Of a DNA stretch of 64,000 bases, positions 41,226-61,276 are shown in pieces. The notes below the pieces were generated by a model. The model made no database searches, was not told the DNA's origin, and worked only from the letters and a program-made list of their open reading frames with translations. Source of the DNA: Candidatus Latescibacterota bacterium (GTDB lineage Bacteria > Latescibacterota > UBA2968 > UBA8231); contig CBDAOB010000005.1 of NCBI GenBank assembly GCA_965197905.1, forward strand, positions 1,228,176-1,292,175, written 5' to 3'. The first letter of the stretch is position 1. Each line of letters starts with the position of its first letter. The position numbers and the translations under genes are program-made.

Positions 41226-43576
41226 ATGTCGAAGACCGTGACAGCGTTATTGTTGTCGATTCTCGTGTTCGCCGGCCGCAGTGCGGCGGGAGAAACCATC
41301 GATGGAACCGTGCACGATGCGCGGGGTGCAGTATTAGCTGGAGCAAATGTGCAAATACGGGGGACCGGTCGCGGTGAGGCCACCGATGCCGACGGCAGGT
41401 TTCGCATTGCAGGTTTGGAGGCCACCAAAGTGCAAGTGGTGGTCAGCCTGATCGGGTACGGCTCCCAAACCCAATCGGTCGATCTCCGGTCGGGGTCCAA
41501 GCGGATTGATTTCGTGCTGACGCTCGAACCGATAGAGATGAATCCCCTTGTGATCTCCGCGAGCGCTATCGGAGAAGAGGTGAGGACTGCTCCAAACAAA
41601 GTGAATATCATCGATCGGCGGGAGATCGAGCGTTCAACGGGATATACGATCCAGGATGTACTGCAACACTCGGAAGGTCTCTATGTGTCGCGGTGTCGCG
41701 GGGCCAAGGGCTCTTGGTCGACTTCCAAACTGTCGTTGTTCGTGGCATGACGGCAGGCACCTTTGGCCGCAATTCAGCGGTGCTGACCACCTTGAACGGG
41801 CACTCCCTCAACGGCACTCTGGGTTCCTGGGCGAACATCGGTGATCTCGATGCTTTACCTGCAAGCATTATTCAAAAAACTGAAGTGATCAAGGGACCGT
41901 ACGCCTCGATCTACGGCTCGGGCGCGACCGGAGGCGTCATCAATATTACGACCCGCAAACATTTTGATCGTGCCATGGGAGGTGATGTTCAATACAAGGT
42001 CGGTCCCTACGGGTTTCGTTCCATTGCCCCCGCGTTCTTCGGTCAGACGGATCGTTTAACCTATTCCGCCTGGGGTGAGTTCATGCACGGCAGCGAACGG
42101 CTCGGGCGCCGGCGGAAGACGTGGAATCTCGCCAACGGCTATCTCGACGAGGGCAGAATCGAGCAGTCGAAATACGGGTTCATGATCGGGTACGATTTGA
42201 ACGCCGCCGACAGGGTTGATCTGTTGGGCAGTCGACTGGAAAAGTTCAACAACTACGATGGACGGCCGATCAACCGCGAGGAGATCGACAGCGACTTTCT
42301 GCATTTGACCTTTACGCGAAAAATCAACGATACGTATACGCTTACGGTTCTGGGCAACTGGCTGCGCAATACCTACGATCTGGTCGCCGACAACAATCCC
42401 GCACATCCCGACTCCGCCGCGTGGATAACACGTACGCAACCGTTTCCCAACAGGGAAATCGGGGTCAAAACCGTTGTCAGCGGCAAGCTTGGCCCCCACC
42501 ATTTCAATACGGGAGTCGAGTGGCGACGGAATCGGAGTAGCCGCACGTCCTGGTGGGGCGACCGGGAATTCCTTGAGTTCGACGTTAACGGCACCCAAGA
42601 GATCTATTCGCTGTTCGTGGAGGACAAGCTGCGCTTCGGCAGGCTCGAGTTGACTCCCGGGTTTCGATTGGAACAGTGGCAAGACAACGCGTTATACTCG
42701 GAGCAGGAGACGCCCGACAACGCACCCAATTTCCCCGGACCCGCGCCCGCCTACCTCAACGGTCGTGTCCATACAGGTTACGCTTCCGGTACCAGCGAGA
42801 AAGAGGCGTTCAGTCCGAAGGTTGGAATGGCATACCTGCATTCAGACCGTCTCAAGATCAGGGCCTCCGCCGGCAGTACTTTTCGGGCGCCGCGGATAAC
42901 CGAGACCTACAGTCCCGACTATCAGACCCTGGACTTTCTGAAGTTTCGGGCCAACCCGGGTCTCGACGAGGAAACCATCATCTCTTACGAAGCAGGATTC
43001 GATTGGTCCACTTTGAACCAGCGCCTCGATCTGTCGGCTACGGCGTTCCGCATCGATGCAAGAGATCGTATCGAGTTTACCTTGACTGGGAGTTTTACGG
43101 CCGAGGATCCGTTCGTGATCGTACACCGAAATCTCGATACGGAAATCATCGGAATTGAAGGAGAGGTGGGATTCGCCGTCGGACAGAATCTCGCCGTCGG
43201 TGCGAATTTTTCGTTTGTAGATGCCGAGTACACCAGCGGCTCGTCCGCCTTTAAGAACGAACCAACGCCTTACGTTCCGGATCATACATTAAACGTCAAT
43301 GTTGATTACGCTCTGATCCACGGATTGGATCTACGCCTGTCGGTGCAACGCATAGGTGAGATAACAGACGGCCTTTTCCCCGGAGGTATCGACGGCTACG
43401 AGATCTTCAATCTCAAGGCGCGCTACGAAATCGCCGGAGCCGGCAGAGATCGATATTTCATCGATGCCGGCCTTACCAACCTGTTGGATGAGGACTATCA
43501 GGTACCTAGCAACGGAGTGTGGGATTACAGGCCGCTGGGCCGAGGGTTGCACCTGACCGCAGGATACGGGTTCTAG
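41226..43576 (+). pseudogene. TonB-dependent receptor (SusC-like, with N-terminal CarbopepD_reg domain) disrupted by an 8-bp tandem duplication
   Basis: GTGTCGCG is duplicated perfectly in tandem at 41685-41700 and shifts the frame inside the plug domain. Deleting one copy restores ...GLYVSRGQGLLVDFQTVVVRGM.... The C-terminus ends ...LHLTAGYGF (terminal aromatic residue). Confidence 0.7.
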
Positions 43577-43640: not shown

Positions 43641-43687
43641 GGGCTGCATCACACCTTTCGCCGGTTGGTGCAGCCCTCCGTTTTTTT
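43641..43687 (+). terminator. rho-independent terminator (GGGCTGCA / TGCAGCCC stem followed by TTTTTTT)
   Basis: Read directly from the sequence, downstream of the TonB receptor stop. Confidence 0.55.
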
Positions 43688-43701
43688 CCCATGCCAAAGA
43701 G

Positions 43702-45401
43702 ATATGCCGATGGTGATCATAGTCACGATTATGGTTGTAACGCTGGTGGGATATTCCGTCTCTTCAGCAGCGGTAGTACTGCGGGTCGGGACTACCACCG
43801 AGATGGCACCCCTCTCCCCTGTGGACACGAACGGCCTATGGTACAGCACCGGTTACATGGGTTTTTTGTTCATGCCCCTCATCACCTATCGAGGTCCCGA
43901 CGCTCGTTTTGGCCCCTGCCTGGCCCAGTCATGGGAGGTAGCCGCCGACAACCATTCGATTCAGTTCCGCCTGCATTCCGGAGCGCGGTGGCACGATGGC
44001 CCTCCGGTTACTGCTGAGGACGTTGCTTTTACGCTGGACTACGTCAAGGAGCATGAGCTCATCGGTCAGCTCTGGCGCTTTCTGGATCATTCGGAAGTAA
44101 TAGATACACTCACGGTTGCCGTACACTTCACTGAACCAGTGGCATTCTATCAATCCATGTTCTTTCCGTGGCCGAAGATCCTGCCAAAACACATCTGGAA
44201 CGATATATCAGAGCCGGATCTGTTCCAAGGAACGCAAGCCATGATCGGAAGTGGCCCGTTCGAGTTTGATCGATACGATGCCTACGCGCGGGTGGCGTCA
44301 CTGCGAAGAGTGCCTGAATTTTTCGGTGGTGATACGGCGGTTGAGCAGATAGATATACGGTACTACGGCTCCAATGAGGCTCTCGTGCTCGCTCTTAGAC
44401 TGGGGGATATCGACGTTGTGGTGGGAGCTACCAGCCACATTCCCAACGCGTACGTGGCGGCTGTCGAAGGGGAGGCGGCTATTGGGCTCGTCGAGATCGA
44501 GGACTCGGGTGTACCGCTGACTTTGGTATTTCACGCGACGAGACATCCCACCCGCCTCCCACTATTCCGCCAGGCCGTCGCTGCAGCGATCGATTACGGA
44601 GCATTTATTCCGACCGTCATGCGCGGTCGCGGTCGTATTCCCGAGCGTGGATTCGTGCCTCCGGCCGCCTGGACCTACGGCGGGCCCTTTCCCCTCCATG
44701 TCCACGACCCAGAGCGTGCTGTGGCTTTGCTCGATTCCATCGGATTCAAGGATGTGGACGGCGACGGTCTGCGGGAGGACGAAAATGGGGACGACTTCAC
44801 ACTGGCGCTGATTCCCGAAACATGGCAATCTCACGGAGAGGAATTGCGCGCTACGGAGCTACTTGTGTACCAGCTCAAGTCCGTGGGCATTCCAGCCCAA
44901 CTGACCAAGTATCTGGTGGAAGAGGAGTACGAGATTCTCTGGGAACGACGGGACTACCAGGCATATGTGGGACATGCGACCCATGCCAGCGTGCGAGATG
45001 GTGGGCATGTGTATTTTGCCAACTATCAGGATTACTCCTATGGCACTTTTGAAGATTCGGTCTATTTCGAGATTCTGGATCGCATCACCCACGCTCAGAA
45101 CGCGGATGAATATCTGCTAGCCGTCAGACAAGCCCAGGCATTCAACAGCAGCGAGTTGCCCGGATTGCCTTTGACGTGGGGTTCGAAAATATTCGCTTTT
45201 CGAAAAGACAGGTTCAGCGGTTGGCAGGGGATGAGCGGGTACGGATTTCCCAACTACGATTCATGGTTTTCGTTACAACCTCGACCCGCGGCGGCTGCCA
45301 AACCTACCGACTCGATGTCTGCGGGGTTCTGGACGAAATTCGGCCTTGCCGTCCTGTTTCTGGCCGCAGCGTCCTGGATTTGGAAACGTCGCAGGCTCTA
45401 A
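43702..45401 (+). CDS. ABC transporter substrate-binding protein (family 5, oligopeptide/nickel type) with a C-terminal TM anchor
   Basis: SBP_bac_5-like core. The start is placed after the terminator (MPMVIIV...). The C-terminus FWTKFGLAVLFLAAASWIWKRRRL is hydrophobic and ends in basic residues. Confidence 0.7.
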
Positions 45402-45425
45402 CCCCGATCAACGCCAAGGTCTTTT

Positions 45426-46376
45426 TTGAGCGATCACGTCTTCAAGAAGAGCGCCCGGTATTCCTTGAGCCTGCTGGTTGTGCTCCTACTGAATTTCGCC
45501 TTACCCCGTGCGATGCCTGGAGATCCGGTAATGCACCTCATGGGCGCGGAGGATTATTACCGGTTTCCCGAGATGGCAGAGCAGGTTCGGGCGAAGCACG
45601 GCTTGGATCGACCCCTGGTTGAACAGGCCTGGACCTATTTCGCCGGTATCCTGCGAGGTGATCTGGGCGTGTCATTCCGCTATCGAAGCAATGTCGGCGA
45701 GCTTCTGCTGCGCGGCATAAAGTGGACGGCGTGTTTGGTGTTGCCGTCCCTCGCAGTGGGATCGCTGCTGGCAGCCTTACTCGGGGGTGTCGCTGGTTGG
45801 TGTCAGGGACGACCGTGGGAGCGGCTGCTAACCATGAGTATCATGCTATTCAGATCGGTTCCCGAATACGGAATCGCTATGATTGCCTTGCTCCTCCTGG
45901 CCTATCACCTTGCCCTGTTCCCCCTCGCCGGCATAGCCCAGATCGGCGGCCTGGAGATCCTGCGCCACGCTCTGCTGCCCTGGATCATCCTCAGTCTCCT
46001 CTATACCGGTCAGTATTACCTGGTGCTGCGGAACGCCATCGCCGCTACACGAGCAAAACCTTTCATCGTTAGCGCTCGAGCCCGTGGACTTACCAGCTGG
46101 GTGGTCCTGAGGCGCCACGCTTTTCGCGAAGCTCTGTTGCCATTCCTGTCCCTATTGGGTTTGGGACTCGGTTTCTCCGTGTCCGGGGTGTTGCTGGTGG
46201 AGATCGTATTTTCTTGGCCCGGAATGGGAACCTTGATTCTGAGCGCCGTCAACAGCCGCGACTATCCTCTCCTGCAGGGTTGCTTTCTGCTATTGACTAT
46301 CAGTGTCCTTTTGGTCAACTACCTCACTGATCTCGCGTACGGATTTTGCGATCCGAGATTGAGGATCGGCTCTTGA
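45426..46376 (+). CDS. ABC transporter permease (OppB/DppB-like)
   Basis: 6 TM helices and an EAA-like loop. Confidence 0.8.
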   Translation: MSDHVFKKSARYSLSLLVVLLLNFALPRAMPGDPVMHLMGAEDYYRFPEMAEQVRAKHGLDRPLVEQAWTYFAGILRGDLGVSFRYRSNVGELLLRGIKWTACLVLPSLAVGSLLAALLGGVAGWCQGRPWERLLTMSIMLFRSVPEYGIAMIALLLLAYHLALFPLAGIAQIGGLEILRHALLPWIILSLLYTGQYYLVLRNAIAATRAKPFIVSARARGLTSWVVLRRHAFREALLPFLSLLGLGLGFSVSGVLLVEIVFSWPGMGTLILSAVNSRDYPLLQGCFLLLTISVLLVNYLTDLAYGFCDPRLRIGS

Positions 46377-47179
46377 ACAGCTTCGTCGCTCGCCCCGAGT
46401 GTCTGATTGGCTGCGGATTCCTGATGGCGCTTGCAGCGGCGGGCGCGCTGGCAGGCTTTCTGGCCCCTTACGATCCGTGGGCGGCTAGCGGACCTCCGTT
46501 TGCATCTCCCAACTGGCCGCATCTGCTGGGTACGAATGATCTCGGCCAGGATCTCCTGAGCGAGGTAATCTTCGGCATTCGACTTTCTCTATCGGTGGGT
46601 TTGATTGGCGCCGCTGTGGCGACCTTCATTGGGGCGCTTGTCGGGCTAGCGGCGGGGTATTATCGGGGTTGGATCGACGAGGCATTGATGGGGTTGACCG
46701 ACACGATCATGTTGATTCCGGCACTCCCGTTGATCATCCTGCTGGTTGCCTATTCCGGACCCAGCTTCTGGTGGTTTGTCGCGGTTATAGGTTTGGTTTG
46801 GTGGACCGGCACGGCGCGGGCCGTACGCGCCCGAGTGTTGCAGGTGCGGGAAATGCCTTTCGTCGAAGCCTCGACCGCGTTGGGAGCCCGCAGATGGCGC
46901 ACCATGCTGGTTCACGTCTTGCCGAACGTTGGCCCAGTTTTGCTGGCACGTTTCACCATGGCTGTGCCTGAAGCGATTCTCACAGAGGCCGGCCTTAGCT
47001 TTCTGGGACTCGGAGACCCGTCGGTAAAGAGCCTGGGATTAACCTTGAATCACGCTTTTACAAACGGGGGATTGATCAACGGACAATGGTGGTGGTACCT
47101 GTTTCCGATCATGGCCATATCCACGATAGTGTTGAGCGTATCTCTGCTTGGAGTCGGTTCCCAATCAAATCCCAAATAG
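46346..47179 (+). CDS. ABC transporter permease (OppC/DppC-like)
   Basis: 6 TM helices. It overlaps the upstream permease. Confidence 0.8.
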   Translation: MRSEIEDRLLNSFVARPECLIGCGFLMALAAAGALAGFLAPYDPWAASGPPFASPNWPHLLGTNDLGQDLLSEVIFGIRLSLSVGLIGAAVATFIGALVGLAAGYYRGWIDEALMGLTDTIMLIPALPLIILLVAYSGPSFWWFVAVIGLVWWTGTARAVRARVLQVREMPFVEASTALGARRWRTMLVHVLPNVGPVLLARFTMAVPEAILTEAGLSFLGLGDPSVKSLGLTLNHAFTNGGLINGQWWWYLFPIMAISTIVLSVSLLGVGSQSNPK

Positions 47180-47195
47180 TGCCGAAGGCAGCGCA

Positions 47196-48416
47196 CTATC
47201 CCAACAGCTTCGATTTTCGCGTGACTCTGTTCCAGTTTTTCTTCTCTCGCCGACGCTGCAGCAGATACTTCACTCGTGGAAAGCGCGGCGCAGGGGGCTC
47301 GAACTGGAGCCGGATCCACTCCACCGGAGGCACCGCAATACGAATCAGGTAGAGCAGTTTTTTCGTAATCGGGGCGCCGCCGAAGAGATAATAGCGAGCC
47401 GCATCGAACGGTCGGATAAACGACTTCAAGTCGAAGAACTCCCGTTTCCGCCAAATCCGTTGGAATAGCCATGACCGGGAGCGGGTAGGGGCCAACGGTT
47501 CCAGCTCCGACAAGGTGCGCTCGGGATAGATCAATTGTGTTATCCAGAGCATCGAGTGATAGAAGGAATCTTGTAGCCGTCGTGACTTGGCTTTACCGCA
47601 AAGCAGGTCCCAGTCCATGCGCGGCCCCCATTGTCGATAGAAGGCGTTGATATCATAGTACCAGAGCATACGGCCGAATCCGTGCAGATTGGCGTGAGTG
47701 GCGAGATACAGTAGCATCTCCTCCGGACAGAGACTGCAAATCGTGCGGCCCCGTACGGTCCACTCGTGCGATTCGTCCCACGAGGACTCGCGCCCGTCTG
47801 GCACTCCGTAGTTATACAACCGGAAATGAATCTCGACGGGAGTAAGATCGTCTCTGGTGAATCGCAACTGCTCCATGTACTGGGAATACTCGACCATTCC
47901 TGCCGGCGTCAGATCTTTGGGGACCGGCGTATCCTGATGAAACCCGGCCTTCTCGAGAATCTCTCGACACGCCAGATGGTCCGCCTCGCGTATCAGCAGA
48001 TCGAGATCGTAGGAGGCGCGCGGGGCTCCAGGCGGATGCAGACTCTGCAGAATCGGTCCTTTCAACGCCATGGTCTCGATGTAGTCCGAATTCAACAGAT
48101 CTTGGCAGTGTAGAAGGGTATCGACCTGCTGGCCTTGGAGACGTTTCATTTCGGCGGCCCCATCTTGCAACGTCGACCGCGACGAGGGCGGGATTTGGTC
48201 CAGCAGGGAACAGGCGGAGAGATGGTGATGCAGCAGAGCCAACATCCGGTGGTAGTCGGCTTTGCTCAGGATGCGATTCCAGTCGGGCTGGTCCGTAACC
48301 AAACGGGCAAATCGCTGTGCCCATTCTTCCTCCAGTTTTTCTCGGCACGCAAGGACGAGGATGAGATCCTCCGGCGTGAGCCGATGATGCGTCTTATTAG
48401 TTTGATGTGAATCCAT
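47196..48416 (-). CDS. uncharacterised nucleotidyltransferase (PF14907-like, NTP_transf_5)
   Basis: The overall pattern resembles PF14907. The start is probably MDSHQ. An in-frame upstream extension would reach 48518. Confidence 0.5.
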   Translation of the reverse strand: MDSHQTNKTHHRLTPEDLILVLACREKLEEEWAQRFARLVTDQPDWNRILSKADYHRMLALLHHHLSACSLLDQIPPSSRSTLQDGAAEMKRLQGQQVDTLLHCQDLLNSDYIETMALKGPILQSLHPPGAPRASYDLDLLIREADHLACREILEKAGFHQDTPVPKDLTPAGMVEYSQYMEQLRFTRDDLTPVEIHFRLYNYGVPDGRESSWDESHEWTVRGRTICSLCPEEMLLYLATHANLHGFGRMLWYYDINAFYRQWGPRMDWDLLCGKAKSRRLQDSFYHSMLWITQLIYPERTLSELEPLAPTRSRSWLFQRIWRKREFFDLKSFIRPFDAARYYLFGGAPITKKLLYLIRIAVPPVEWIRLQFEPPAPRFPRVKYLLQRRREKKNWNRVTRKSKLLG

Positions 48417-49635
48417 GGGTGATGCTAATCGGACCGCAATGCTTGTGGCCAGCCAGGCCTTCTTCAATGGCGTCCTGGCCGTCGAGGTCATACTTCTAGG
48501 CCGTTGGTTTGATAGCACCCTTTTGGGGTTCTATTTCTTCAGCCTTTCTTTGGGCAGCATCCTCGAGGTGTTCGTTCATTGGGGCGCCCAGCACTATGTG
48601 AATCGAGAGGCTGCGTCAGACCTCACTGCCAAGCAGCACCTTCCACTCTTCTTGAGATTTTCGTGCGCCGCCCAGATACTCATCGCGGCGGTCCTGATGA
48701 CGAACTTCGGTTGGCCTCAGGCACTGATCGCTGCGGGGTTGATGATGCGCTCGGGTGCCTTCCTCGTCGGAGCCATTTTCGTCGGTCGGCGCCGGGTTGT
48801 GATCCCGATTCTGGGCCGGGTATCTTCGCAGCTTTTGCTCCTTCTATGTCTGCTGACGATCGTGCGGAGCGGTCCCTCTCTGGAATCCCTTTCCTTGGTC
48901 GAAGCCGGCGTAGGATTTCTGCACCTGCTGGCAATGTTGCTGTTGTTACCGAAAATCGGGTACACGATTCGCGAAGGCGACACTTGGGGCGCCATGGTCA
49001 GCAAGGGAGGCATGTTGGCCAGGGCGGTCTGGCCTTTCACTCTTCTGTTCTTCCTCGGCCAGCTGATCTATCGAGGCGATGCCGTCTTGCTGGCATATCT
49101 CGTCGAGATCGACTCCGTGGCCAAATTGATGCTGGCGTTCAAGTGGATCGAAGGCATGTTCTTCGTTGCCGCCGTCGTCTCCAGCGCCACCATACCGTTG
49201 TTGGTCGAATCGGCCTCTGCTCGGATCCGGGAACTGGTTCTCAAGATCGGCCTTATGCTGTGCGCGGGGTTATCGCTTTTGGCTCTTGGTATGCTGTGGA
49301 TCGGCATTCCCTTCCTGGAGTACGCGTTAGGACAGACGTTCTTCCACTCGCGTCCGTTCTTTCGCCTATTGGTTTGGTGCATCCCACTCCAAGGATTGGG
49401 GTTTTTCTTTGCCACAACCTTGGTTGCTTTGAATCGAGAGCGACCGCTCTTAGTGCTAAGCGGAATAACGATCTTGATCGGGTTTGTGTCGAAATGCCTC
49501 GCAACTTGGCTCTGGGACATCTGGGGATTCGCCTTCGCGATTCTCGGCCACCTCGCCCTCTATCTGGCTGGCACCGGAATGCTTCTTTTCCGTGAGCGCG
49601 GGAAAGATAGGGTTGCAGCAACAGTGAGGCAATGA
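48415..49635 (+). CDS. Wzx-like (MOP superfamily) polysaccharide/oligosaccharide flippase candidate
   Basis: About 12 TM helices and a 406-aa length. It is head-to-head with the nucleotidyltransferase gene. Confidence 0.5.
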   Translation: MGDANRTAMLVASQAFFNGVLAVEVILLGRWFDSTLLGFYFFSLSLGSILEVFVHWGAQHYVNREAASDLTAKQHLPLFLRFSCAAQILIAAVLMTNFGWPQALIAAGLMMRSGAFLVGAIFVGRRRVVIPILGRVSSQLLLLLCLLTIVRSGPSLESLSLVEAGVGFLHLLAMLLLLPKIGYTIREGDTWGAMVSKGGMLARAVWPFTLLFFLGQLIYRGDAVLLAYLVEIDSVAKLMLAFKWIEGMFFVAAVVSSATIPLLVESASARIRELVLKIGLMLCAGLSLLALGMLWIGIPFLEYALGQTFFHSRPFFRLLVWCIPLQGLGFFFATTLVALNRERPLLVLSGITILIGFVSKCLATWLWDIWGFAFAILGHLALYLAGTGMLLFRERGKDRVAATVRQ

Positions 49636-51597
49636 ATGTTGGCAACCGATCCAGACCGTCGCACGTATGTGGCAACCGGTGTCGCCGCAGCAGGGTCCAC
49701 AACGCTCCATCTCCTTGCCAATGTTTTTCCGGAGCATCTGTGGGGCGCACACCACCTGAAATTCCTCTTTCCCGAAGCCGTTATCCCATTCTACCTGTCC
49801 CCTTTGGTTATACTGGTTCCGTCCGTGAATCGGCAATTTCGTCGCATCGTCGGCGCAGTGCTCGGTGCCTGCGGGTCAACAGCTCTTCGGTACGCGATCG
49901 CACTCTGCGTATCCGCGCTGATCTTCTCCGCGTTTCCTCTTGACCACCGTCTCTTTGGCGACAATCTAGCAAGGCTAGGTGAAGTAGCAGGGCTGACCGA
50001 GATAGACCATCGCCCCCATGAGTACGACACTATGTTACGCCGGTTCGTTCACCGCGAGCTTGGCGAATTGCTGGGTTGGGGTGTGGATCGAACCTATGCG
50101 ACGATCTCCATTCTCTTCGGGGTCGCGTACGTCGGCGGATCCCTGGCCCTCTCTCGGCTTTTGGGTCGTAGCTCTGCGGGCGCTGCACTTTTGTTTTGCG
50201 GACTCCTATCGCCCGGGTATATGCTGCTCTTCTTCGGTTATGCGGAGGCTTACAGTTCTGTAATTTCAGCTACCCTGTTCTTTCTCTTGACCACGCTCGC
50301 ATTTATGGAAGGCAGGTGCTCCATCTTGTTACCAGTGCTGACACTGGCCGCAGTAGGTCTCCTGCACATCATGGGACTCTTCGTTGCGCCAGGGTTGGTT
50401 TACGCGGCGGTGAAACGATACGAGGTGGATCGCTTTTTCCCTCTGATCCTCCGCCGTCACTTCGCCCCGGCGCTTTGCTTTGTCAGTCTGCTGCTGGGTT
50501 TGTGGTCCTTTCATCTGATACGGCCTTCTTCCATGCTCCCGCTGTTCGACCGGGTCGACCATCTACCGTACGGAATCCTTTCGTTGGCGCATCTTCTCGA
50601 TATGGTAAATGAGCAGATGCTGGTTGCCTTACCCGGGTGGATCGGACTGCTGCTGGCGCTGGTACAGCCTCGGGGAGAAGCGGATCAACGGCTGCAATTG
50701 TTGGGCGTTGCCGCCGTCGTCAGCTTGGGGATGTGGTTGACGGTCAACCCGGCTCTGGGCAGTCTCGATTGGGATCTGCTCGCTATATCGGCATTGCCTT
50801 GGGTTCTTTTCGGTCTGTACGCCATGATCGTCCGATTCCCTTCAGAGGGCTCTCTGGGTTACGCCGCAGCAGTGGTTGTCGGATTGAGTCTAACACACAC
50901 GATTCCGTGGATCACACTTCAACGTTGGGGGGACAAAGCGGTTTTGGCGGTCGAGGCGATGGTAGTCAACGACGCCCACACCTTTGGTTGGCGCAGCGGA
51001 ATTCTCGGAGTGAGCATGATATCTGAGGGTTTCCATGGAGCCGGACGGCGCCAGCTCGAACGGGCGGAGCGGCGTTCGAGCGACGAAGCACCGGTGGTCC
51101 TGCGGACGCTGGCGCAGATCTATCTCGAGGAAGGCCGATTCGACGAGGTCAACTCGCTGCTGCGGAGAACCCTATTGCTCGTGCCTGACAAGGCCACGCT
51201 GAAGATCTTGCGCGTCTATCGCAAACGCGCGCCCAACGGATTGCTGGCAAGCATCGAGTTGCTGGAGTACGTCATCAGCATCCACCCCCATCCAACCTAT
51301 TTCGGAATACTGGCCGAGTTTTATCGTGCGGCAAATCGTCGCGAGGATCTGTTTCGCCTTATGGATAAGCTGGACCGTACTATTTCTCGATCGGAGCTGT
51401 TGGCAACAACGGATCCAAACAATGGTGAGAATCTGATGAATCTCGGGGCTCTCTATCTTCGGCGCGGCCGCATGCGCGAGGCGGAGACCGCCTTCGACAA
51501 CGCCGAGGCTACACCATTGGGCGCCAAGCAACGGACTTCATTGAGAGAGTTGCGGGCTATACTGGAAACAGTAAAGTCTCGGGGTTCACAAGAATGA
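49636..51597 (+). CDS. polytopic membrane protein with a C-terminal TPR-like soluble domain
   Basis: Many TM helices over about 480 aa, then an alpha-helical repeat region. The start abuts the flippase stop. Confidence 0.45.
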   Translation: MLATDPDRRTYVATGVAAAGSTTLHLLANVFPEHLWGAHHLKFLFPEAVIPFYLSPLVILVPSVNRQFRRIVGAVLGACGSTALRYAIALCVSALIFSAFPLDHRLFGDNLARLGEVAGLTEIDHRPHEYDTMLRRFVHRELGELLGWGVDRTYATISILFGVAYVGGSLALSRLLGRSSAGAALLFCGLLSPGYMLLFFGYAEAYSSVISATLFFLLTTLAFMEGRCSILLPVLTLAAVGLLHIMGLFVAPGLVYAAVKRYEVDRFFPLILRRHFAPALCFVSLLLGLWSFHLIRPSSMLPLFDRVDHLPYGILSLAHLLDMVNEQMLVALPGWIGLLLALVQPRGEADQRLQLLGVAAVVSLGMWLTVNPALGSLDWDLLAISALPWVLFGLYAMIVRFPSEGSLGYAAAVVVGLSLTHTIPWITLQRWGDKAVLAVEAMVVNDAHTFGWRSGILGVSMISEGFHGAGRRQLERAERRSSDEAPVVLRTLAQIYLEEGRFDEVNSLLRRTLLLVPDKATLKILRVYRKRAPNGLLASIELLEYVISIHPHPTYFGILAEFYRAANRREDLFRLMDKLDRTISRSELLATTDPNNGENLMNLGALYLRRGRMREAETAFDNAEATPLGAKQRTSLRELRAILETVKSRGSQE

Positions 51598-52610
51598 TGG
51601 CGACGATAGAACGTCCTCCCGATCGTTTGCTGGCTCCTTCCTTCTGGACGAGTCTGTTCGGACGCGACATCAGCAGCTGCCGGGCCGAACTTATCGAGAG
51701 GGGAATGAGTCCCAGCACCGTGTTCCGAATGCACTTTGAACGGGGGGATCCAAGTTTTCCTACGCTTATTCTCAAGGTCTCCAGAGCCCCCTGGCCCTCC
51801 AGTGACCCGACCGGGTTTGGCAGGGAAGCGTTCGTTTATGAACGTTTCATTGGAAGAACGTCCACGGTGGGCCCCGAGCTGATCCATTGCGAGGCCGATG
51901 GCGACGGCACTGTGATCGTGCTCTCCGATCTGGAGATCGATCATGAGTTCAAGAGATCAGACCATCTCTGGAGCCAGACGGAGATCGTGCCGGTTCTCGA
52001 AACATTCGCTCGCTTGCATCTGCAAGCGGAGGAGATCGGCCATGCGGATGGTGGCCCCCTGGTTGCGGCTCCGAACCTTCGCTGGGGGCAGGCCGTCATT
52101 CTGGAGGCGGCGCGAAGCGTAATGCCTCACGTTACAGAAATCCCCTCAAGATTTCTTTCGGAGTGTGAATTCCTGCTCGGCAGGCTGGATCCGAACAGCT
52201 GGCAGCAGCGACCCTCGACGTTGCTTCATAGCGATTTTAATGCCTCAAATGTGGCTTTCTCGAACCGCTCCGGAGAAGCGCGGCTGATCGATTGGCATAT
52301 CGCGGCTTGGGGTATGCCATCATTCGAGATCGGGTCGCTATTTTACCAGCCGCACTGCAACCACGTGAAGTTGAGCCGGTCTCAAACCCTGCGGCAGTAT
52401 CTCCATGCCCGTTACGAGCTGGACGGAGTAAGATTCGACGAACAGGAGGAGTGGAACTGTTTCCGCTTCGCCCTGGCGTACGACGGACTCAGTTACCTTC
52501 CCCCGGTAGCCCGGAGTCTGAAGGAGGCAGGATCCCTGTCCGGCTGGTGGTTGAACATGTTGCAGAATATTGTTGAGAATCTGAATTGGGCGGCGCGAGA
52601 ATACCGGTAG
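51594..52610 (+). CDS. aminoglycoside-phosphotransferase / choline-kinase-fold (APH-like) kinase
   Basis: The catalytic loop HSDFNASNV and LIDWHIAAWG match the APH-like HxDxxxxN and DxE motifs. ATGA overlap with the upstream gene. Confidence 0.6.
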   Translation: MMATIERPPDRLLAPSFWTSLFGRDISSCRAELIERGMSPSTVFRMHFERGDPSFPTLILKVSRAPWPSSDPTGFGREAFVYERFIGRTSTVGPELIHCEADGDGTVIVLSDLEIDHEFKRSDHLWSQTEIVPVLETFARLHLQAEEIGHADGGPLVAAPNLRWGQAVILEAARSVMPHVTEIPSRFLSECEFLLGRLDPNSWQQRPSTLLHSDFNASNVAFSNRSGEARLIDWHIAAWGMPSFEIGSLFYQPHCNHVKLSRSQTLRQYLHARYELDGVRFDEQEEWNCFRFALAYDGLSYLPPVARSLKEAGSLSGWWLNMLQNIVENLNWAAREYR

Positions 52611-52620
52611 AAATGCGGAA

Positions 52621-53646
52621 TTGATGGAATACGAGGAATTCGCCGCCGACCTGGAAGATTTCTGGGGGCGCCGGAAGAATGAGCCGACCCACCGGCGGGA
52701 GACGGTCTTATTCGGTCGCAACACTTGCATCCATGCCAATGAGGCGGCCGTGCTCGAGGCCGTCGATTTCTCGGCCCGGCTGTTCTCCCGCGTCGCCACG
52801 TTGTGCGACCGGTCCTTCGAGGTGCGGATCGTCGTAAGCCCGGCACCCCAACCGCCGCAGCCGGTGGACGAGAGCCTGGTTAACCAGTTGCACTACGTGG
52901 GACAGGGCGACTGGCTGCACATCCGCGCTGCCGCATGGGGCAGCGCCCACGTTGCTTTGAACCGTGGAGAAGCCCACTTGATACTGACCCCCGAGCTAGC
53001 GTGTCGGCCCGACCTGGTCAGCTCGTACCTTTTGAACACGGTGCTGCTGAACCTCGCCATCGCCGATGGGGTAGGCATGTTGCACGCCTCGTGCCTCATG
53101 CGGAACGGACGGGCGCTATTGCTGATGGCGCCACACAACACCGGTAAATCAACGACCGCCCTCGAACTCGTGCGCGCCGGCTATCGCCTTCTTACCGACA
53201 GCATGGTCTTCTTTCAGCTGGTCGATGGCAGGCCGCTACTCATGGGCATGCCGGTGGGCCGGATTAAACTGAGGCGAAATGTTCTCAGCCGTTTCCCGGA
53301 GTTCGAAGCTTCGTTGAAGGCGGAGCAGGTACGCTCTGAAACCAAATACGTGGCCGAACTGACCGAGCGTTCACAAACAGAAAAAGAAGCGGTTTCCGCG
53401 GCTGCGATCGCACTTTGCCTGCTGCGGCGAAGCGAGCTCGAGTCGAGCCATTACGTCGTCGTGGATCGGTCGGAGATCATGCAGGCTATCGTAAAAAACA
53501 GCTTGTACTTCGACAGCTCCATGGTGTGGCGTCGAAATCTCGATCAGCTGGAGCAGTTGGTTGAAATTGCAGATTGGTACAGCCTGGCGGTGGGAACGAG
53601 CCCCGCGGGAATCGTAGAAGCTGTTAACTCGATCCTGAACGACTAG
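52621..53646 (+). CDS. HPr kinase/phosphorylase C-terminal-domain-like protein with a degenerate P-loop
   Basis: LLMAPHNTGKSTTALELVRAGYRLLTDS aligns with the HprK [25 protein letters not shown] region. Confidence 0.55.
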   Translation: MMEYEEFAADLEDFWGRRKNEPTHRRETVLFGRNTCIHANEAAVLEAVDFSARLFSRVATLCDRSFEVRIVVSPAPQPPQPVDESLVNQLHYVGQGDWLHIRAAAWGSAHVALNRGEAHLILTPELACRPDLVSSYLLNTVLLNLAIADGVGMLHASCLMRNGRALLLMAPHNTGKSTTALELVRAGYRLLTDSMVFFQLVDGRPLLMGMPVGRIKLRRNVLSRFPEFEASLKAEQVRSETKYVAELTERSQTEKEAVSAAAIALCLLRRSELESSHYVVVDRSEIMQAIVKNSLYFDSSMVWRRNLDQLEQLVEIADWYSLAVGTSPAGIVEAVNSILND

Positions 53647-54863
53647 CCGATGTGCTGAGGAATCTCTATTTCCTCCCCCGTCATCTCGAAGATCTGGTGT
53701 TGGTACACCGTGCGTACGATAGTGCTTTCCAGCGCGGGTGGCAGGTCGACAAAACGCAATTGCATGGTCCGGCCATGCGGGTCTGACGTGTCCCGAAGTA
53801 CCTGGCAGACAATTCCCCCCAGTGGGAAAGCTCCTTCGAAGTCGGGATCGATCAACACCCGGAAGCCTGCAGTCGTCGTATCCTCCGTCCTGACACTGAG
53901 TCCACCGGCACCCAAGTCCATCACTTCCACCTGAATGGCGGGTAGCTCTCGGGGGTCGAAAACCGCTTCATGCGCTTCCCCATCGTCGGCGTCAGAGCTG
54001 TCTTCCGGGAGCTCGACGACTACGTCCTCCTCCCCGGACGTATCGACGCTATCGAGCAACGCGATGGCCGCCTCGGTCCCCTTTGGCCCCGCATCTTCAG
54101 GCAGCACTCTGAGCAGCATCGGGAAGTGGACCGGTATGCGAAAAAATCCGCGCTGCTGCATGCGCTCCAGGTCGTGCACATGCTTGAGCAGAATCGTCTG
54201 CGAGACCTCGTCGACGGAGATTATTTCGGTCGTGAAACGATATTCCGTGTCCTGCTCTCTCCAAAACCGGGCGGACAGGTGGCTCCCCTGAGTCACCGCG
54301 CGGAATTCCCGCTGGTCTTCCCGCAACATCAAGGTGGCGGAGAGCCCGCGCTCGTCCCGGCTTACCACAAGCCAAGGAGAAAAGGTTTCCGTGTCGCCTG
54401 CTTCCGGCTGCACCATCAGGGTGACTCCGGGCTCCAGTTGCCGCGTGGTGCGCATCGGTTGGGCGGCATCGAGGGAATCGAACCCCAGCATCTCTCGCAT
54501 CTCGGCGATGTTCTTCAACACGGGGTCTTCCGGATTGCGATCGGCCACGCGAGCTGCGTATCGGCCCACGTGTCGATCGAAGCTATACACGGAATTCAAA
54601 AGCATCGATGGGTCGCTGAGCGAATGTTTGCGGCCCAACTTTGCGAGAAATCGCAACTGTTTCGGCTTCAGACCTCGATCCTTGCCCGAACTCCAGAACC
54701 GTTTGTGAATCGCCTGCTGATGGCGCCGCCGTTTGACAAAGTACCCCACCGCCATCGCCAACAGACCGGCACAGAGCAATGTAAACAGGACTTTTACTAC
54801 CGGTGACGGCTCCTCAATCCGTGGCCGCAGCAGGGGCAGAATCTCGCGCAATCCTTCGTTCAC
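53643..54863 (-). CDS. membrane-anchored PilZ-domain protein
   Basis: An N-terminal TM helix. RGFFR (RxxxR) and a DLGAGGLS (DxSxGG-like) motif pair. Convergent 4-nt overlap with the HprK-like gene. Confidence 0.5.
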   Translation of the reverse strand: MNEGLREILPLLRPRIEEPSPVVKVLFTLLCAGLLAMAVGYFVKRRRHQQAIHKRFWSSGKDRGLKPKQLRFLAKLGRKHSLSDPSMLLNSVYSFDRHVGRYAARVADRNPEDPVLKNIAEMREMLGFDSLDAAQPMRTTRQLEPGVTLMVQPEAGDTETFSPWLVVSRDERGLSATLMLREDQREFRAVTQGSHLSARFWREQDTEYRFTTEIISVDEVSQTILLKHVHDLERMQQRGFFRIPVHFPMLLRVLPEDAGPKGTEAAIALLDSVDTSGEEDVVVELPEDSSDADDGEAHEAVFDPRELPAIQVEVMDLGAGGLSVRTEDTTTAGFRVLIDPDFEGAFPLGGIVCQVLRDTSDPHGRTMQLRFVDLPPALESTIVRTVYQHQIFEMTGEEIEIPQHIG

Positions 54864-55014: not shown

Positions 55015-55647
55015 ATGGCCACTTTACTGATCATTGAAGACGACATGGTGTTTCAACGGGCGTTGAAACGCGCCCTCGAACCAGCCGGACACAAGGTGTC
55101 GACGGCCGACACCGGGCACAGCGGTCTGGCGATGCTGCAGGAGTATATGCCCGACGTTGTTCTGCTTGATTTGATTCTAGGGGATGGGGACCTGGATGGT
55201 CTCGAGGTCCTGGCGTGGACGCGGGCACTGAACTCGGAGCTCCCCATCATCATCATGACCGGTCATGCCTGCGTGGAGACCGCGGTGGAAGCGATGAAAC
55301 TTGGAGCCAGTGACTACGTTCAGAAACCGTTGAATTTCGACGAGGTGCTGCTCTTGATCGATCGGAGCCTCGAGGTGGTCAATCTGCGGCGAGAGTTGGA
55401 TCGGCTCCGCAGCGCGCAGGTGGCACCGATAGGGGAGTCCCTAGCCCATATCGTCGAAGAGCACCCCGAAGGCGATGTCTACGACGGTGTCCTTCGACAA
55501 CTACTGATGGAAGCGCTGCAAAGAGCCGGTGGCAACAAGGCCCGGGCCTGCCGGTGGCTCGGATTGAGCAAGTCGCGTCTGGACTACCGTCTGCGTCAGT
55601 ACGGCATCAACGCCACCGAGATTCGCAAGGCAGGGCGTAGTGGCTGA
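55015..55647 (+). CDS. response regulator: REC domain plus Fis-type HTH, no sigma54 AAA+ module
   Basis: LIIEDD...LLDLILGDGDG receiver domain and the C-terminal GGNKARACRWLGLSKSRLDYRLRQYGI HTH_8. Confidence 0.75.
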   Translation: MATLLIIEDDMVFQRALKRALEPAGHKVSTADTGHSGLAMLQEYMPDVVLLDLILGDGDLDGLEVLAWTRALNSELPIIIMTGHACVETAVEAMKLGASDYVQKPLNFDEVLLLIDRSLEVVNLRRELDRLRSAQVAPIGESLAHIVEEHPEGDVYDGVLRQLLMEALQRAGGNKARACRWLGLSKSRLDYRLRQYGINATEIRKAGRSG

Positions 55648-55885
55648 AACGCTCCCAACTGGAGATGAACCCCTGGAGGAGAATGCGGCGCTGTTGCAAC
55701 GGTTTGTTCACGATCTCAACAATATCCTGGCGGCGGCATTGGTCAACGCAGATCTGCTGCAAAATCGGCTTGCGCCAGAAAGTCCTCTAATGGAGATCGT
55801 GGAGGATCTGAACCTTTCCTTGGAACAGGCGCGGACGTTGATACAAGAGATCAGAGCGGCAGCGCCAAACCTCAAAGGGCGCTAG
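55640..55885 (+). CDS. 81-aa DHp (HisKA-like) domain-only protein; likely a remnant of a sensor histidine kinase
   Basis: H-box FVHDLNNIL. No HATPase_c domain. It overlaps the response-regulator stop, and its 3' end overlaps the convergent rbsK gene. Confidence 0.4.
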   Translation: MAETLPTGDEPLEENAALLQRFVHDLNNILAAALVNADLLQNRLAPESPLMEIVEDLNLSLEQARTLIQEIRAAAPNLKGR

Positions 55886-58856: not shown

Positions 58857-59996
58857 ATGAAGAAACGAGAATTGCCGAAATCCGAGCCGTATTTGACCGA
58901 GGAGGAGATCGAGACTCTGGTGGCCGACTTCGAGGGGATTTTGCGGTCTAAGACTCTTACCAGGGGGCCGTTTATAGATCGATTCGAGATGGAATTCGCC
59001 ACACTTGCGGGTGTCTCACATGCAGTCGGCATGAGTTCCGGCACGGCTCCACTTGAGGTTGCCATGCGGTTTTGGAACGTGGCAGGCGGCGAGGTGATCG
59101 TGCCCACGAACACCTTTGCCGCGTCGGCAAACGCGGTCCTTCTGGCGGGTGGGACGCCGGTGTTAGCCGACATAACCTGCGAGACTTTGACCAGTGATCT
59201 GGACGCGATCGAAGACCACGTTTCTGACATCACTAGGGGAATCATCGCCGTCCACATCTCGGGGTTTATTCAACCGGATCTTCACGAGGTGCGACGATTC
59301 TGCGATCAGCGGGGTCTCTTCCTGTTGGAAGATGCGGCTCACGCCCATGGAGCCAGCCTGGATGGCCAATCGGCCGGGTCCCTGGGCCACGCCGGCAGCT
59401 TTTCGTTTTTTCCTACCAAACCGATGACCAGTGGAGAGGGGGGGATGTTGACGACGGATGATTCGGAGTTGGCGGGGTTTGCAGAAAGTTTTCGCTGCCA
59501 CGGGATCGACGATGCGGGGAAACGCCTCGAGCGTCTGGGAGCAAACTACCGGTTGCCGGAGCTAAGTGCGGCCCTGGGGCTGCGTCAGCTCGAGCGACTG
59601 GAAGAAAAAATGACATATCGTAAATCGCTGGTAAACAGCTATATAAGTCAATTGAAATCAGTTCCGGACGTAGGAATTTTTCGAGAACCGAAAAACCAGG
59701 TTCACAGTTACTATAAATTCCCGATACTACTCCCGGACTGTTGGGATCGAGAATTCTGCCTGTCCTCGTTGGAGCGGGATTTTGGCATCCGTTGTGGCAC
59801 CATTTACTGGCCGCCCTGCCATCTGGAACCCTTTTACCGGCGGCGTTTCGGCTACGGTCCTGGGAGTTTCCCGACCGCCGAAGAAGTGCTGCCGCGAACC
59901 CTGACCCTGCCGCTTTATAACGGCATGGCACTGGCGGATGTGGAGTATATTTGCGGCGCGGTCAAGGAGGTGGCACGTCGCTACGAAAACGGTTGA
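58857..59996 (+). CDS. DegT/DnrJ/EryC1/StrS family PLP-dependent sugar aminotransferase
   Basis: The overall family pattern, including the GAGDAF-like region and the PLP-lysine region. Confidence 0.8.
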   Translation: MKKRELPKSEPYLTEEEIETLVADFEGILRSKTLTRGPFIDRFEMEFATLAGVSHAVGMSSGTAPLEVAMRFWNVAGGEVIVPTNTFAASANAVLLAGGTPVLADITCETLTSDLDAIEDHVSDITRGIIAVHISGFIQPDLHEVRRFCDQRGLFLLEDAAHAHGASLDGQSAGSLGHAGSFSFFPTKPMTSGEGGMLTTDDSELAGFAESFRCHGIDDAGKRLERLGANYRLPELSAALGLRQLERLEEKMTYRKSLVNSYISQLKSVPDVGIFREPKNQVHSYYKFPILLPDCWDREFCLSSLERDFGIRCGTIYWPPCHLEPFYRRRFGYGPGSFPTAEEVLPRTLTLPLYNGMALADVEYICGAVKEVARRYENG

Positions 59997-60033
59997 CTTT
60001 CTGGCGTCGTTAAGTAAGTTAACGTTTACTATC

Positions 60034-60639
60034 ATGCCTGCTGAAAGGAGAACCCGCAAGAACAAGCGCGAAGCGCTGGTGGGGGCCGCTATCCGGCTGG
60101 TCGCTCAAAAAGGGACCAAAGCCGCTTCCGTTCGGCAGATAGCCGAAGCTGCGGGGGTATCTGAAGCTGCGGTTTATCGACATTTCTCCAGCAAGGAGGA
60201 TCTTTTTTTTCAGGTTTACTGCCAGATCGTCGACGATATGGCGGTCTCCAAGGAAGATATCCTCGGAAGCGGCGAGCCGATGCACCTGCGAATCGGGGGA
60301 TGGGTCCGGGTTACCTACGACTTCTTTGACAAATTCCCCGATGCGTTCACCTTCGTGCTCCTGACTCCGCACAACTTCGAAGAGCGGGATGGGGTTGAGA
60401 TTACCACGAGGCAAGGAGCCATGCTCATGGCCATGCTCGACCGCGACATGAAGGAGGGTCTGTTACCATCTTTTCAACTCGATCTGGCCATGGCGATGTT
60501 TACCGGAGTAATGCTCAACGTGCCGCGGCTGATCAACGAGGGTGCCCTTGCCGCTCCCGCCTCCCAGTATGCAGATCGCGTAGTAGAGGCGATATTCAAC
60601 ATGTTTCGGATCAAAGAATCGACTCGCGCGGAAGCTTGA
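60034..60639 (+). CDS. TetR family transcriptional regulator
   Basis: N-terminal HTH ...SVRQIAEAAGVSEAAVYRHF. The start is reassigned to MPAERR. Confidence 0.7.
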   Translation: MPAERRTRKNKREALVGAAIRLVAQKGTKAASVRQIAEAAGVSEAAVYRHFSSKEDLFFQVYCQIVDDMAVSKEDILGSGEPMHLRIGGWVRVTYDFFDKFPDAFTFVLLTPHNFEERDGVEITTRQGAMLMAMLDRDMKEGLLPSFQLDLAMAMFTGVMLNVPRLINEGALAAPASQYADRVVEAIFNMFRIKESTRAEA

Positions 60640-60640
60640 G

Positions 60641-61276
60641 ATGTCGGAACGAAAGAGAATTCTGGTTCTAGCGCCCCACACGGACGATGGCGAGTTCGGC
60701 TGCGGAGGAACGATTAGTCGATTCGTCGAAGAGGGGGATGACGTGTATTACGCTGCATTCTCCACCGCCGAGAAGTCTGTCCCACCTGAATTTCCACCCA
60801 ATATTCTGGAGCGCGAGGTCAGATTGGGTACCTGCGTTCTGGGTATACGCCCGGAAAATCTTCTCGTTTACAAATACGAGGTACGCTGCCTGCCGCACGC
60901 CAGGCAAGAGATTCTTGAAGAGCTAGTGCGGCTGAAAGCGGAGATAAACCCCGATACGATTTTTCTTCCGAGCAGTCAGGATCTTCACCAGGACCACCAA
61001 ACCGTTTACACCGAAGGGCTGCGCGCCTTCAAGATGTCGACGGTTCTCGGATATGAACTGCCTTGGAACAACCTCAGTTTCGACTATCGGCATTTCGTCG
61101 TGCTGCAGCAACGCCACGTGGAGACCAAGATCGAAGCGCTGCGGTGTTACCAGTCGCAAGCCCATCGTCCCTACAGCGAAGAGGATTTTATCTGGGGATG
61201 GGCGCGCACGCGGGGAGTACAGATAGCAGCTGAATACGCAGAAGCGTTCGACGTGCTCAGGTGGGTGCTGCCGTGA
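60641..61276 (+). CDS. PIG-L/LmbE family N-acetyl-sugar deacetylase
   Basis: The N-terminal motif ILVLAPHTDDGEFGCGGT (PHxDDE). Confidence 0.7.
   Translation: MSERKRILVLAPHTDDGEFGCGGTISRFVEEGDDVYYAAFSTAEKSVPPEFPPNILEREVRLGTCVLGIRPENLLVYKYEVRCLPHARQEILEELVRLKAEINPDTIFLPSSQDLHQDHQTVYTEGLRAFKMSTVLGYELPWNNLSFDYRHFVVLQQRHVETKIEALRCYQSQAHRPYSEEDFIWGWARTRGVQIAAEYAEAFDVLRWVLP

Follow-up and report, generated by a model that had tools for sequence, protein, structure and literature searches.

What is the function of a gene group that places an HprK-related kinase and a PF14907 nucleotidyltransferase-fold enzyme, a pair that recalls the tailoring enzymes of lasso peptides, among transporters and a membrane glycosyltransferase? 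This question is raised by a 64,000-nucleotide stretch of a Candidatus Latescibacterota genome (contig CBDAOB010000005.1, positions 1,228,176 to 1,292,175), the whole of which we call the window. A first-pass annotation had named six open reading frames (ORFs) between positions 47196 and 54863 and suggested that they phosphorylate or nucleotidylate a surface glycan or an exported peptide, in the manner of an accessory set for a peptide that is made by ribosomes and modified after translation (RiPP). All six ORFs were found where they had been placed, and the general idea of an uncharacterized, envelope-directed phospho-modification system holds. The boundaries were too narrow, however, as they left out the genes for a SBP_bac_5 solute-binding protein (SBP) and two permeases just upstream (43665-47179). 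Based on Pfam, family hidden Markov models (HMMs) and predicted folds, positions 43665-53646 hold eight contiguous families: SBP_bac_5, two Opp/Dpp-type permeases, an APH kinase, PF14907, a MOP transporter, an HprK-related kinase and a GT-C enzyme. We compared about 160 related loci, 80 of them genome loci retrieved with the HprK-like protein and 79 of them metagenome loci retrieved with the APH protein, and from this comparison it is very probable that the eight genes of the window, the transporter genes included, are one copy of a cassette that is conserved and self-contained.

For the 80 genome loci we took 10 kb on each side and located the genes by seed and family HMMs, and the key families were confirmed in Pfam. 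Nearly all of these loci are from Chloroflexota, together with one from Zixibacteria, two bins labelled 'Actinomycetota' and one Latescibacterota chromosome. Co-localization of the HprK-like and PF14907 homologues had been set beforehand as the test of the earlier proposal, and it was found in most cases: among the 38 well-flanked loci (at least 7 kb on both sides), 35 contain a PF14907 homologue, and the median distance between it and the HprK-like gene is 1.3 kb. The recurrent operon reads SBP_bac_5, APH, BPD_transp_1, BPD_transp_1, PF14907, Polysacc_synt (MOP), HprK-like and PMT_2 (GT-C). When loci that are reordered, or reduced to the SBP, APH, permease, PF14907 and HprK-like genes, are counted as well, the set is present in 19 loci outside Latescibacterota, which include a Zixibacteria metagenome-assembled genome (L040) and the two Actinomycetota-labelled bins. 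At least three gene orders occur, namely that of L013, that of L072 and L085, and that of L074 and L078 with an inverted transporter block.

The reciprocal search, made independently from the APH protein, gave the 79 metagenome loci and the same picture. An SBP gene lies upstream of the APH gene in 50 of 50 loci, and 57 of 58 have a permease or HprK-like gene immediately downstream. Where more than 3 kb of downstream sequence is available, PF14907 or the HprK-like gene is seen in 18 of 19 loci, and with more than 6.5 kb the HprK-like gene is seen in 5 of 5. The arrangement of the window, where the APH gene is directly followed by the HprK-like gene, is also present on contigs L094, L139, L159 and L160. 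All-against-all clustering of the ORFs of 29 long loci showed that the eight families alone recur, the next commonest family being found in 4 of the 29, and hence the cassette is self-contained and sits in variable neighborhoods. In these long loci the MOP transporter is present in 21 and the GT-C 'post' protein in 18.

In the window, the cassette starts on the plus strand with the SBP gene (43665-45401; PF00496, E=4e-55), followed by the genes of permease 1 (45426-46376; BPD_transp_1 of the Opp/Dpp type, PF00528, E=3e-35) and permease 2 (46346-47179; BPD_transp_1, PF00528, E=3e-27). The PF14907 gene (47196-48518) is on the minus strand, and its likely start is at 48416 or 48320; it is convergent with the permease 2 gene, so that the two belong to separate transcription units. 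The plus strand then continues with the MOP gene (48439-49635), the GT-C gene (49636-51597), the APH gene (51594-52610) and the HprK-like gene (52621-53646). These last four had been described as overlap-coupled, which is right for most junctions: the MOP stop directly abuts the GT-C start, and the GT-C and APH genes share 4 nucleotides (ATGA). The HprK-like gene is the exception, with a 10-nucleotide gap after the APH gene. A scan for promoters and terminators between 43 and 55 kb gave counts not above those of shuffled sequence.

Catalytic motifs are conserved in all three soluble enzymes. For the minus-strand protein the assignment to PF14907 (NTP_transf_5) proved sound, with 129.3 bits against a cut-off of 31.2 (E=2.3e-37) over profile positions 2-244 of 249. 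Its G...DxD metal-binding motif (G...DLDL) is present (GPILQSLHPPGAPRASYDLDL) and is kept in 63 of 73 family members; no solved structural relative of this protein was found. The kinase proposed to have an APH fold does match PF01636 (31.1 bits, cut-off 23.2) and is best described as an APH/EcKL-fold small-molecule kinase. The HxDxxxxN motif (HSDFNASN) is found in 19 of 19 family members, with LIDW downstream, and the family alignment shows no variation at H212, D214, N219 and D233; the family profile matches PsiK, APH and the ACAD11 kinase domain. This protein also has the subfamily signature FEIGSLFYQP, which is the one that retrieved the 79 metagenome loci. In the other phyla its gene is located between those of the SBP and the permeases, a position that the kinase gene occupies in most cassettes.

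The third enzyme had been called an HPr-kinase-like protein with a degenerate P-loop. Kinship at the level of the superfamily is supported, but the protein reaches only 21.8 bits against the PF07475 cut-off of 33.3 (E=1.5e-4) and 21.2 bits against the cut-off of 240 for TIGR00679. The best-scoring named family is TIGR04352, 'HprK-related kinase A' (E=4.5e-12, residues 153-325), again below the cut-off, with 45.6 bits against 200. Compared with solved HprK, the family profile aligns in the P-loop region only (E=0.004), and the P-loop APHNTGKSTTALELVRAGYRLLTDS aligns to that of 1jb1 with the first glycines replaced. To call it degenerate is an overstatement, as the motif reads APHNTGKST, in which only the first Gly is lost, and 79 of 80 homologues retain GKST. 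By its sequence, this protein is an HprK-superfamily paralogue, with a conserved N-terminal domain that carries an LEDFWGRR motif. Its homologues carry a newer tag, PF27840 'ScmC', and are nearly all from Chloroflexota (Anaerolineae); the family is small, with 64 clusters at 50% identity and E<=1e-30 among 1.8 billion representatives. The closest homologue is found on the Candidatus Latescibacterota chromosome OZ244235.1 (89% identity). In a rough neighbor-joining tree the window protein falls in a clade with cassette and DUF5693 loci and outside the EEP/PqqD clade. The TTG start of the ORF is probably wrong, since an exact lookup of the protein gave nothing whereas the GT-C and MOP proteins of the window match at 100%; an ATG at 52624 is the alternative start.

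Two membrane proteins complete this part of the cassette. The first, described earlier as a Wzx-like flippase, has the 12-transmembrane-helix fold of the MOP superfamily (Wzx, MATE or MurJ), which bears out that part of the description, but it does not match PF01943. No Pfam family is found for it even at E<=10, and a relative shows only a 'faint' MatE match. In other cassettes its slot is filled by PF01943 Polysacc_synt proteins. In the two Actinomycetota-labelled loci a 609-amino acid ORF with Walker A and LSGGQ motifs (L074, 6892-8721; L078, 6874-8703) replaces the MOP gene upstream of PF14907. Read from its motifs as a putative ABC (ATP-binding cassette) half-transporter, this ORF suggests that the export or flipping step may be carried out by either transporter class. 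The second membrane protein was named as a polytopic TPR protein; the TPR domain is there, at the C-terminal, and the identity can be refined to a GT-C-fold glycosyltransferase. It fills the slot of the PMT_2-like proteins of other cassettes, although Pfam PMT_2 was undetected in the window protein, and its family alignment has invariant loop residues H39, H40, H104, R113, E116, D131 and R135. Membrane components of the cassette vary within the Latescibacterota lineage: L088 encodes a TPR protein of 1092 amino acids followed by a second GT-C/TPR paralogue. In L087, the HprK-like protein is longer (408 amino acids).

The uptake genes raise the question of what is brought into the cell. The window SBP, whose N-terminus (MPMVIIVTIMVVTLVGYSVSSAA) is a hydrophobic signal or anchor, is matched by the cassette SBP HMM with E=1.3e-41. 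Its closest solved relatives are the Thermotoga mannoside binders 4pfu (E=5e-32) and 1vr5, along with 1zty, which binds chitin oligosaccharides, and one Chloroflexota cassette SBP is closest to the oligopeptide binder AppA. Permease 1 shares 35-39% identity with the first permease in the Chloroflexota and Zixibacteria cassettes, and permease 2 is 39-45% identical to cassette permeases (155-192 bits). Taken together, the window permeases score 155-202 bits against cassette permeases and 102-112 bits against solved DppC/OppC. Ahead of the SBP gene lies a TonB-dependent receptor gene (41226-43576, plus strand; CarboxypepD_reg, Plug and barrel by Pfam), which is split by a frameshift into 41226-41750 (CarboxypepD_reg and Plug positions 2-44) and 41693-43576 (Plug 45-107 and barrel). 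The split may reflect either a pseudogene or an assembly error; the gene is intact in L002 (780 amino acids). Similar splits are seen in related long-read metagenome-assembled genomes, in the PF14907 and MOP genes of L002 and in the GT-C gene of L003. The receptor gene is directly upstream of the SBP gene in L001-L003, L087 and L088 and absent from Chloroflexota cassettes; it is a lineage-specific outer-membrane entry step ahead of the cassette in this diderm group.

What, then, might the cassette do? The substrate is probably imported, because the cassette includes an SBP_bac_5/permease uptake system. Our tentative reading, held with less than even confidence, is that the cassette encodes a 'scavenge, activate, display' pathway of cell-surface decoration, which would produce an envelope glycoconjugate. 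More doubtful is its specific form as a new pathway, in which an ATPase-less Opp-type importer would feed a phospho-linking module of two kinases and PF14907, followed by flipping through the MOP protein and installation in the envelope by the GT-C enzyme. Families and folds, intact catalytic motifs and the order-independent co-occurrence of eight families across phyla are what we observe, and the mechanism that we infer from them would run as follows. An external solute, either an oligosaccharide or a peptide, would be imported through the TonB-dependent receptor in diderms and then through the SBP and the permeases. In the cytoplasm the APH-fold kinase would phosphorylate this solute. The HprK-related kinase and PF14907 would then make a phosphate-bridged conjugate (phosphodiester or phosphoglycosyl) on a carrier, using the chemistry by which an HprK-like/NTP transferase pair modifies the C-terminal Ser in lasso peptides. 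The MOP protein would carry the product across the inner membrane, and on the outer face the GT-C/TPR enzyme would transfer it to an envelope acceptor or glycosylate it there.

A pathway with this logic is the lic/TacF/TacL system of pneumococcus and Haemophilus, by which choline is scavenged and displayed on teichoic acid or lipooligosaccharide. That system likewise combines an importer, a ChoK/APH-fold kinase, a phosphodiester-making transferase of nucleotidyltransferase fold, a MOP flippase and a polytopic membrane transferase. The likeness is one of functional logic only: no cassette protein has a LicC-type cytidylyltransferase or LicD (PF04991) match in Pfam or NCBIfam, the cassette importer is of the ABC/SBP type and not LicB, and the HprK-like kinase is additional. 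With the periplasmic GT-C systems (ArnT, PMT/TMTC, GtrABC) the cassette has in common the GT-C fold, the TPR domain, as in the TMTC type, and a partner of a flippase family, but it has no polyprenyl-phosphate sugar synthase (GT2), and no Pfam PMT_2 is found in the window protein. The importer shares with Opp/Dpp systems the family-5 SBP and two BPD_transp_1 permeases in canonical order; it differs in that neither ATPase gene is in the window or beside the cassette permeases, and in that a kinase gene is inserted in most cassettes.

Several points weigh against this pathway. Among the cassette families there is no polyprenyl-phosphate glycosyltransferase or phosphoglycosyltransferase that could load a lipid carrier, and no sugar-1-phosphate nucleotidyltransferase of the usual fold. 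No ORF with both Walker A and LSGGQ motifs was found in the 64-kb window, or beside the permeases in any cassette locus, and the ATPase may come from elsewhere in the genome. The window SBP is just 25-28% identical to the cassette SBPs, and its structural subgroup is another one; given this low identity and the conflicting closest binders (oligosaccharide or oligopeptide), its orthology and a common substrate are uncertain. For the MOP and GT-C proteins of the window, single-sequence and HMM searches gave no link to the corresponding cassette proteins, which they equal by fold and position only, with profile-profile P values of 0.03 and 0.007, respectively. In the Latescibacterota-type relatives (L001-L003, L087 and L088) the whole neighborhood is syntenic, and since this extends to the flanking housekeeping genes, conservation within the lineage carries little weight. 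One of these relatives, L087, is without the APH gene. The steps of the pathway, finally, are read from gene families and by analogy.

A different explanation, which is close to the first-pass annotation and which we consider rather improbable, is that the cassette is a lasso-like tailoring and export set for a RiPP whose core is encoded elsewhere, or which has an imported peptide as its substrate. The HprK-like protein would then phosphorylate a peptide Ser, PF14907 would add a sugar to the phosphate and the MOP protein would export the product. The connection that the annotation drew between HPr-kinase homologues, 'NTP transferases' and lasso tailoring is real: HPr-kinase homologues place a phosphate on the C-terminal Ser of lasso precursors, and the uncharacterized NTP transferase PsmN, through its DxD motif, is needed to add one or two hexoses to the Ser phosphate (PMC8498205, PMC6993621). 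Such proven tailoring enzymes favor the RiPP explanation, yet the PsmK/PsmN work is a chemical precedent and not proof that this locus makes a RiPP. What the cassette has in common with the lasso pairs of paeninodin and pseudomycoidin (PadeK/PsmK and PsmN) is a P-loop kinase of the HprK superfamily beside a DxD enzyme of nucleotidyltransferase fold, and PsmN is presumably a PF14907 member. Unlike these clusters, it has no precursor, no RiPP recognition element (PqqD), no B2 protease and no cyclase; its partners are the SBP importer, APH, MOP and GT-C proteins, and its kinase scores below both the PF07475 and the TIGR04352 cut-offs. We know of no role of GT-C enzymes in RiPP maturation, which also counts against this explanation.

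The absence of a lasso core, already noticed in the first-pass annotation, was confirmed with HMMs for PqqD, B2 and AsnS, each built from 9-11 sequences of related Chloroflexota loci. None matches any ORF of at least 40 amino acids in the window (best E 0.16-1.3), and the 10-kb flanks of the HprK-like or APH gene contain no homologue of the three in any of 29 cassette loci. Nor did we find a conserved small ORF in the cassette, or space for one. More favorable to the RiPP explanation are the AppA-like SBP of a Chloroflexota cassette, the putative ABC half-transporter that stands in place of the MOP protein in L074 and L078, as in lasso clusters, and the 7 of the 38 well-flanked loci, all Chloroflexota, in which the HprK-like homologue is near PqqD-, Transglut_core3- and Asn_synthase-like genes. 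The HprK-like family has in fact two other contexts in Chloroflexota, one with an FGE-sulfatase-like protein, DUF5693 and a second PF14907 gene, and the other with a ScmC-like protein, PqqD, Transglut_core3, Asn_synthase and an EEP phosphoesterase. When the lasso-like genes are scored against the NCBIfam lasso models all of them are below the cut-offs: 35.5 bits against 80 for PqqD, 29.8 against 33 for B2 and 239 against 525 for the cyclase. The Asn synthetase passes the glutamine-hydrolyzing AsnB model, and its best match is the amidotransferase of XrtA/PEP-CTERM exopolysaccharide systems. Moreover, the PqqD gene adjoins, divergently, a different HprK-like paralogue, which is ScmC-like. In L004/L012, L018, L059, L060, L068, L080 and L086 the lasso-like set is also accompanied by PMT and GT2 enzymes, DUF5693 and the FGE-sulfatase-like protein. 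In those loci the set sits inside an envelope-polysaccharide locus and misses all lasso cut-offs, so that the RiPP framing is weak, and it is unlikely that the cassette is a RiPP cluster that lost its core. Precursor candidates around the Chloroflexota PqqD-like genes were considered and rejected, as they proved to be nothing but shadows of coding genes, either antisense or in an alternative frame.

The two other HprK-related systems that the annotations point to are no closer to the cassette. TIGR04352, which belongs with a PqqD system, is the best-scoring named family, but far below its cut-off, as given above, and without a PqqD partner in the window. The SynChlorMet ScmC proteins (TIGR04249/PF27840) lend their tag to the homologues, but no radical-SAM/SPASM genes are found here and the cassette proteins form a distinct small clade. 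The cassette is closest in chemistry to PsmK/PsmN and closest in logic to the pneumococcal lic/TacF/TacL system, and it is a member of neither. Membership is confirmed for PF14907, PF01636 and the MOP and GT-C fold superfamilies, while the cut-offs of PF07475, TIGR04352, PF01943 and, narrowly, PF07238 (for the PilZ-like neighbor considered below) are failed.

Another option is that the genes serve to salvage or catabolize, in the cytoplasm, an oligosaccharide or glycopeptide that has been imported, as in NahK or AmgK/MurU, with the MOP and GT-C proteins only loosely associated. It fits with the mannoside and chito-oligosaccharide binders being closest to the window SBP, with the CarboxypepD_reg-containing TonB-dependent receptor upstream and with an APH-fold kinase embedded in a transporter operon; sugar ABC operons that have no ATPase and share one encoded elsewhere do exist. 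We find salvage an unlikely function all the same, as the MOP and GT-C genes accompany the cassette in most of the 29 long loci (21 and 18, respectively) and none of the conserved families is a glycoside hydrolase, phosphorylase or isomerase. PF14907, in addition, is not known to have the sugar-1-phosphate nucleotidyltransferase fold.

Detoxification or resistance is a still weaker candidate. According to this idea an imported toxin would be O-phosphorylated by the APH and HprK-like kinases, nucleotidylated by PF14907 and expelled by a MATE-type MOP protein. No NCBIfam resistance model and no PADLOC model was matched, a dedicated high-affinity importer for a toxin would be counter-productive and the conserved GT-C glycosyltransferase would be left unexplained, and we regard this function as very unlikely.

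It might also be asked whether the eight genes belong together at all, that is, whether an ordinary Opp-type uptake operon lies by accident beside an unrelated glycan operon, with the earlier six-gene unit being the real one. The convergence of the permease 2 and PF14907 genes in different transcription units would agree with such an accident, as would the low identity of the window SBP to the cassette SBPs, its different structural subgroup and the synteny of the whole neighborhood among the Latescibacterota relatives. What speaks against it is that other phyla interleave the same families in one operon, with the APH gene between the SBP and permease genes, and that the window APH protein belongs to this transporter-embedded subfamily. 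The ATPase is missing in the window and in the cassettes alike, and the window permeases are closer to the cassette permeases (36-45% identity) than to canonical DppC/OppC. Accidental adjacency is thus highly improbable. A phage-defense function was dropped, as there was no PADLOC match.

Beyond the cassette, a convergent gene (53643-54863, minus strand) has a stop that overlaps with the stop of the HprK-like gene, as previously described, and encodes a single-pass membrane protein whose C-terminal domain is PilZ-like. The PilZ claim is supported by RxxxR, invariant in a four-member alignment, but the score of 20.3 bits does not reach the cut-off of 22.5. For the second motif the window has DLGAGG, with Ser replaced by Gly, and the relatives have DLSAGG or NISAGG (canonical D/NxSxxG); an unusual acidic insert of about 75 amino acids lies between the two motifs. 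This gene is present in L001, L087 and L088, and no homologue was found in Chloroflexota or metagenome cassette loci. The five-gene set that had been proposed with PilZ as a member does not recur outside the Latescibacterota lineage. Judged by its sequence, the PilZ-like protein is a lineage-specific neighbor and a possible input of cyclic di-GMP; a cyclic di-GMP control of the cassette would depend on a domain that is below the threshold and confined to Latescibacterota-type relatives.

The window contains some further genes of note. At 58857-63097 (plus strand), 4 kb downstream, there is a glycan-biosynthesis block with a DegT aminotransferase, TetR, a PIG-L deacetylase, WbqC and a GT4 glycosyltransferase. 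This block is syntenic in all Latescibacterota-type relatives, but the cassettes of other phyla do not keep it with them; it might provide the glycan for modification by the cassette. On the minus strand, a 960-amino acid ORF without a Pfam match (35028-37910) is matched by the HMM of the PMT_2-like GT-C proteins of the cassette (E=1.7e-7) and may be a second GT-C-type enzyme. It is directly upstream of, and transcribed just before, a sugar-1-phosphate NTP_transferase gene (PF00483; 34141-35031, minus strand). At 55015-55885 (plus strand) a response regulator of 210 amino acids, with REC and a Fis-type helix-turn-helix, is followed by an 81-amino acid ORF. The latter shows a HisKA phospho-acceptor domain alone (24.2 bits, which is under the cut-off), with no ATPase domain, and may be what is left of a histidine kinase or else a small protein for phosphotransfer. 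Two consecutive large ORFs of 591 and 535 amino acids at 26239-29618 (plus strand) have no Pfam match.

In full-text literature searches we found no published description of the cassette. Both PF14907 and the family of HprK-related kinases are large and have, to our knowledge, almost no biochemistry, nor a solved structure in the case of PF14907, and the functional data that we know of come only from two lasso-peptide clusters. A fixed cassette of eight partners that is found across phyla gives a defined genetic context in which a function can be assigned to PF14907 and HprK-related proteins. For genome mining it means that pairs of HprK-like and PF14907 genes are unreliable markers of RiPP clusters. 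An Opp-type importer that is consistently without its ATPases, with a kinase embedded in the operon, is also unusual for this transporter family. If the decoration pathway is true, this would be the first non-RiPP role of the HprK-like/PF14907 pair, and Chloroflexota, Zixibacteria and Latescibacterota would have a new route to surface glycoconjugates with a phosphate bridge. The cassette thus points to a phosphate-linked decoration of the envelope in little-studied phyla, for example in the filamentous Chloroflexota of wastewater and soil.

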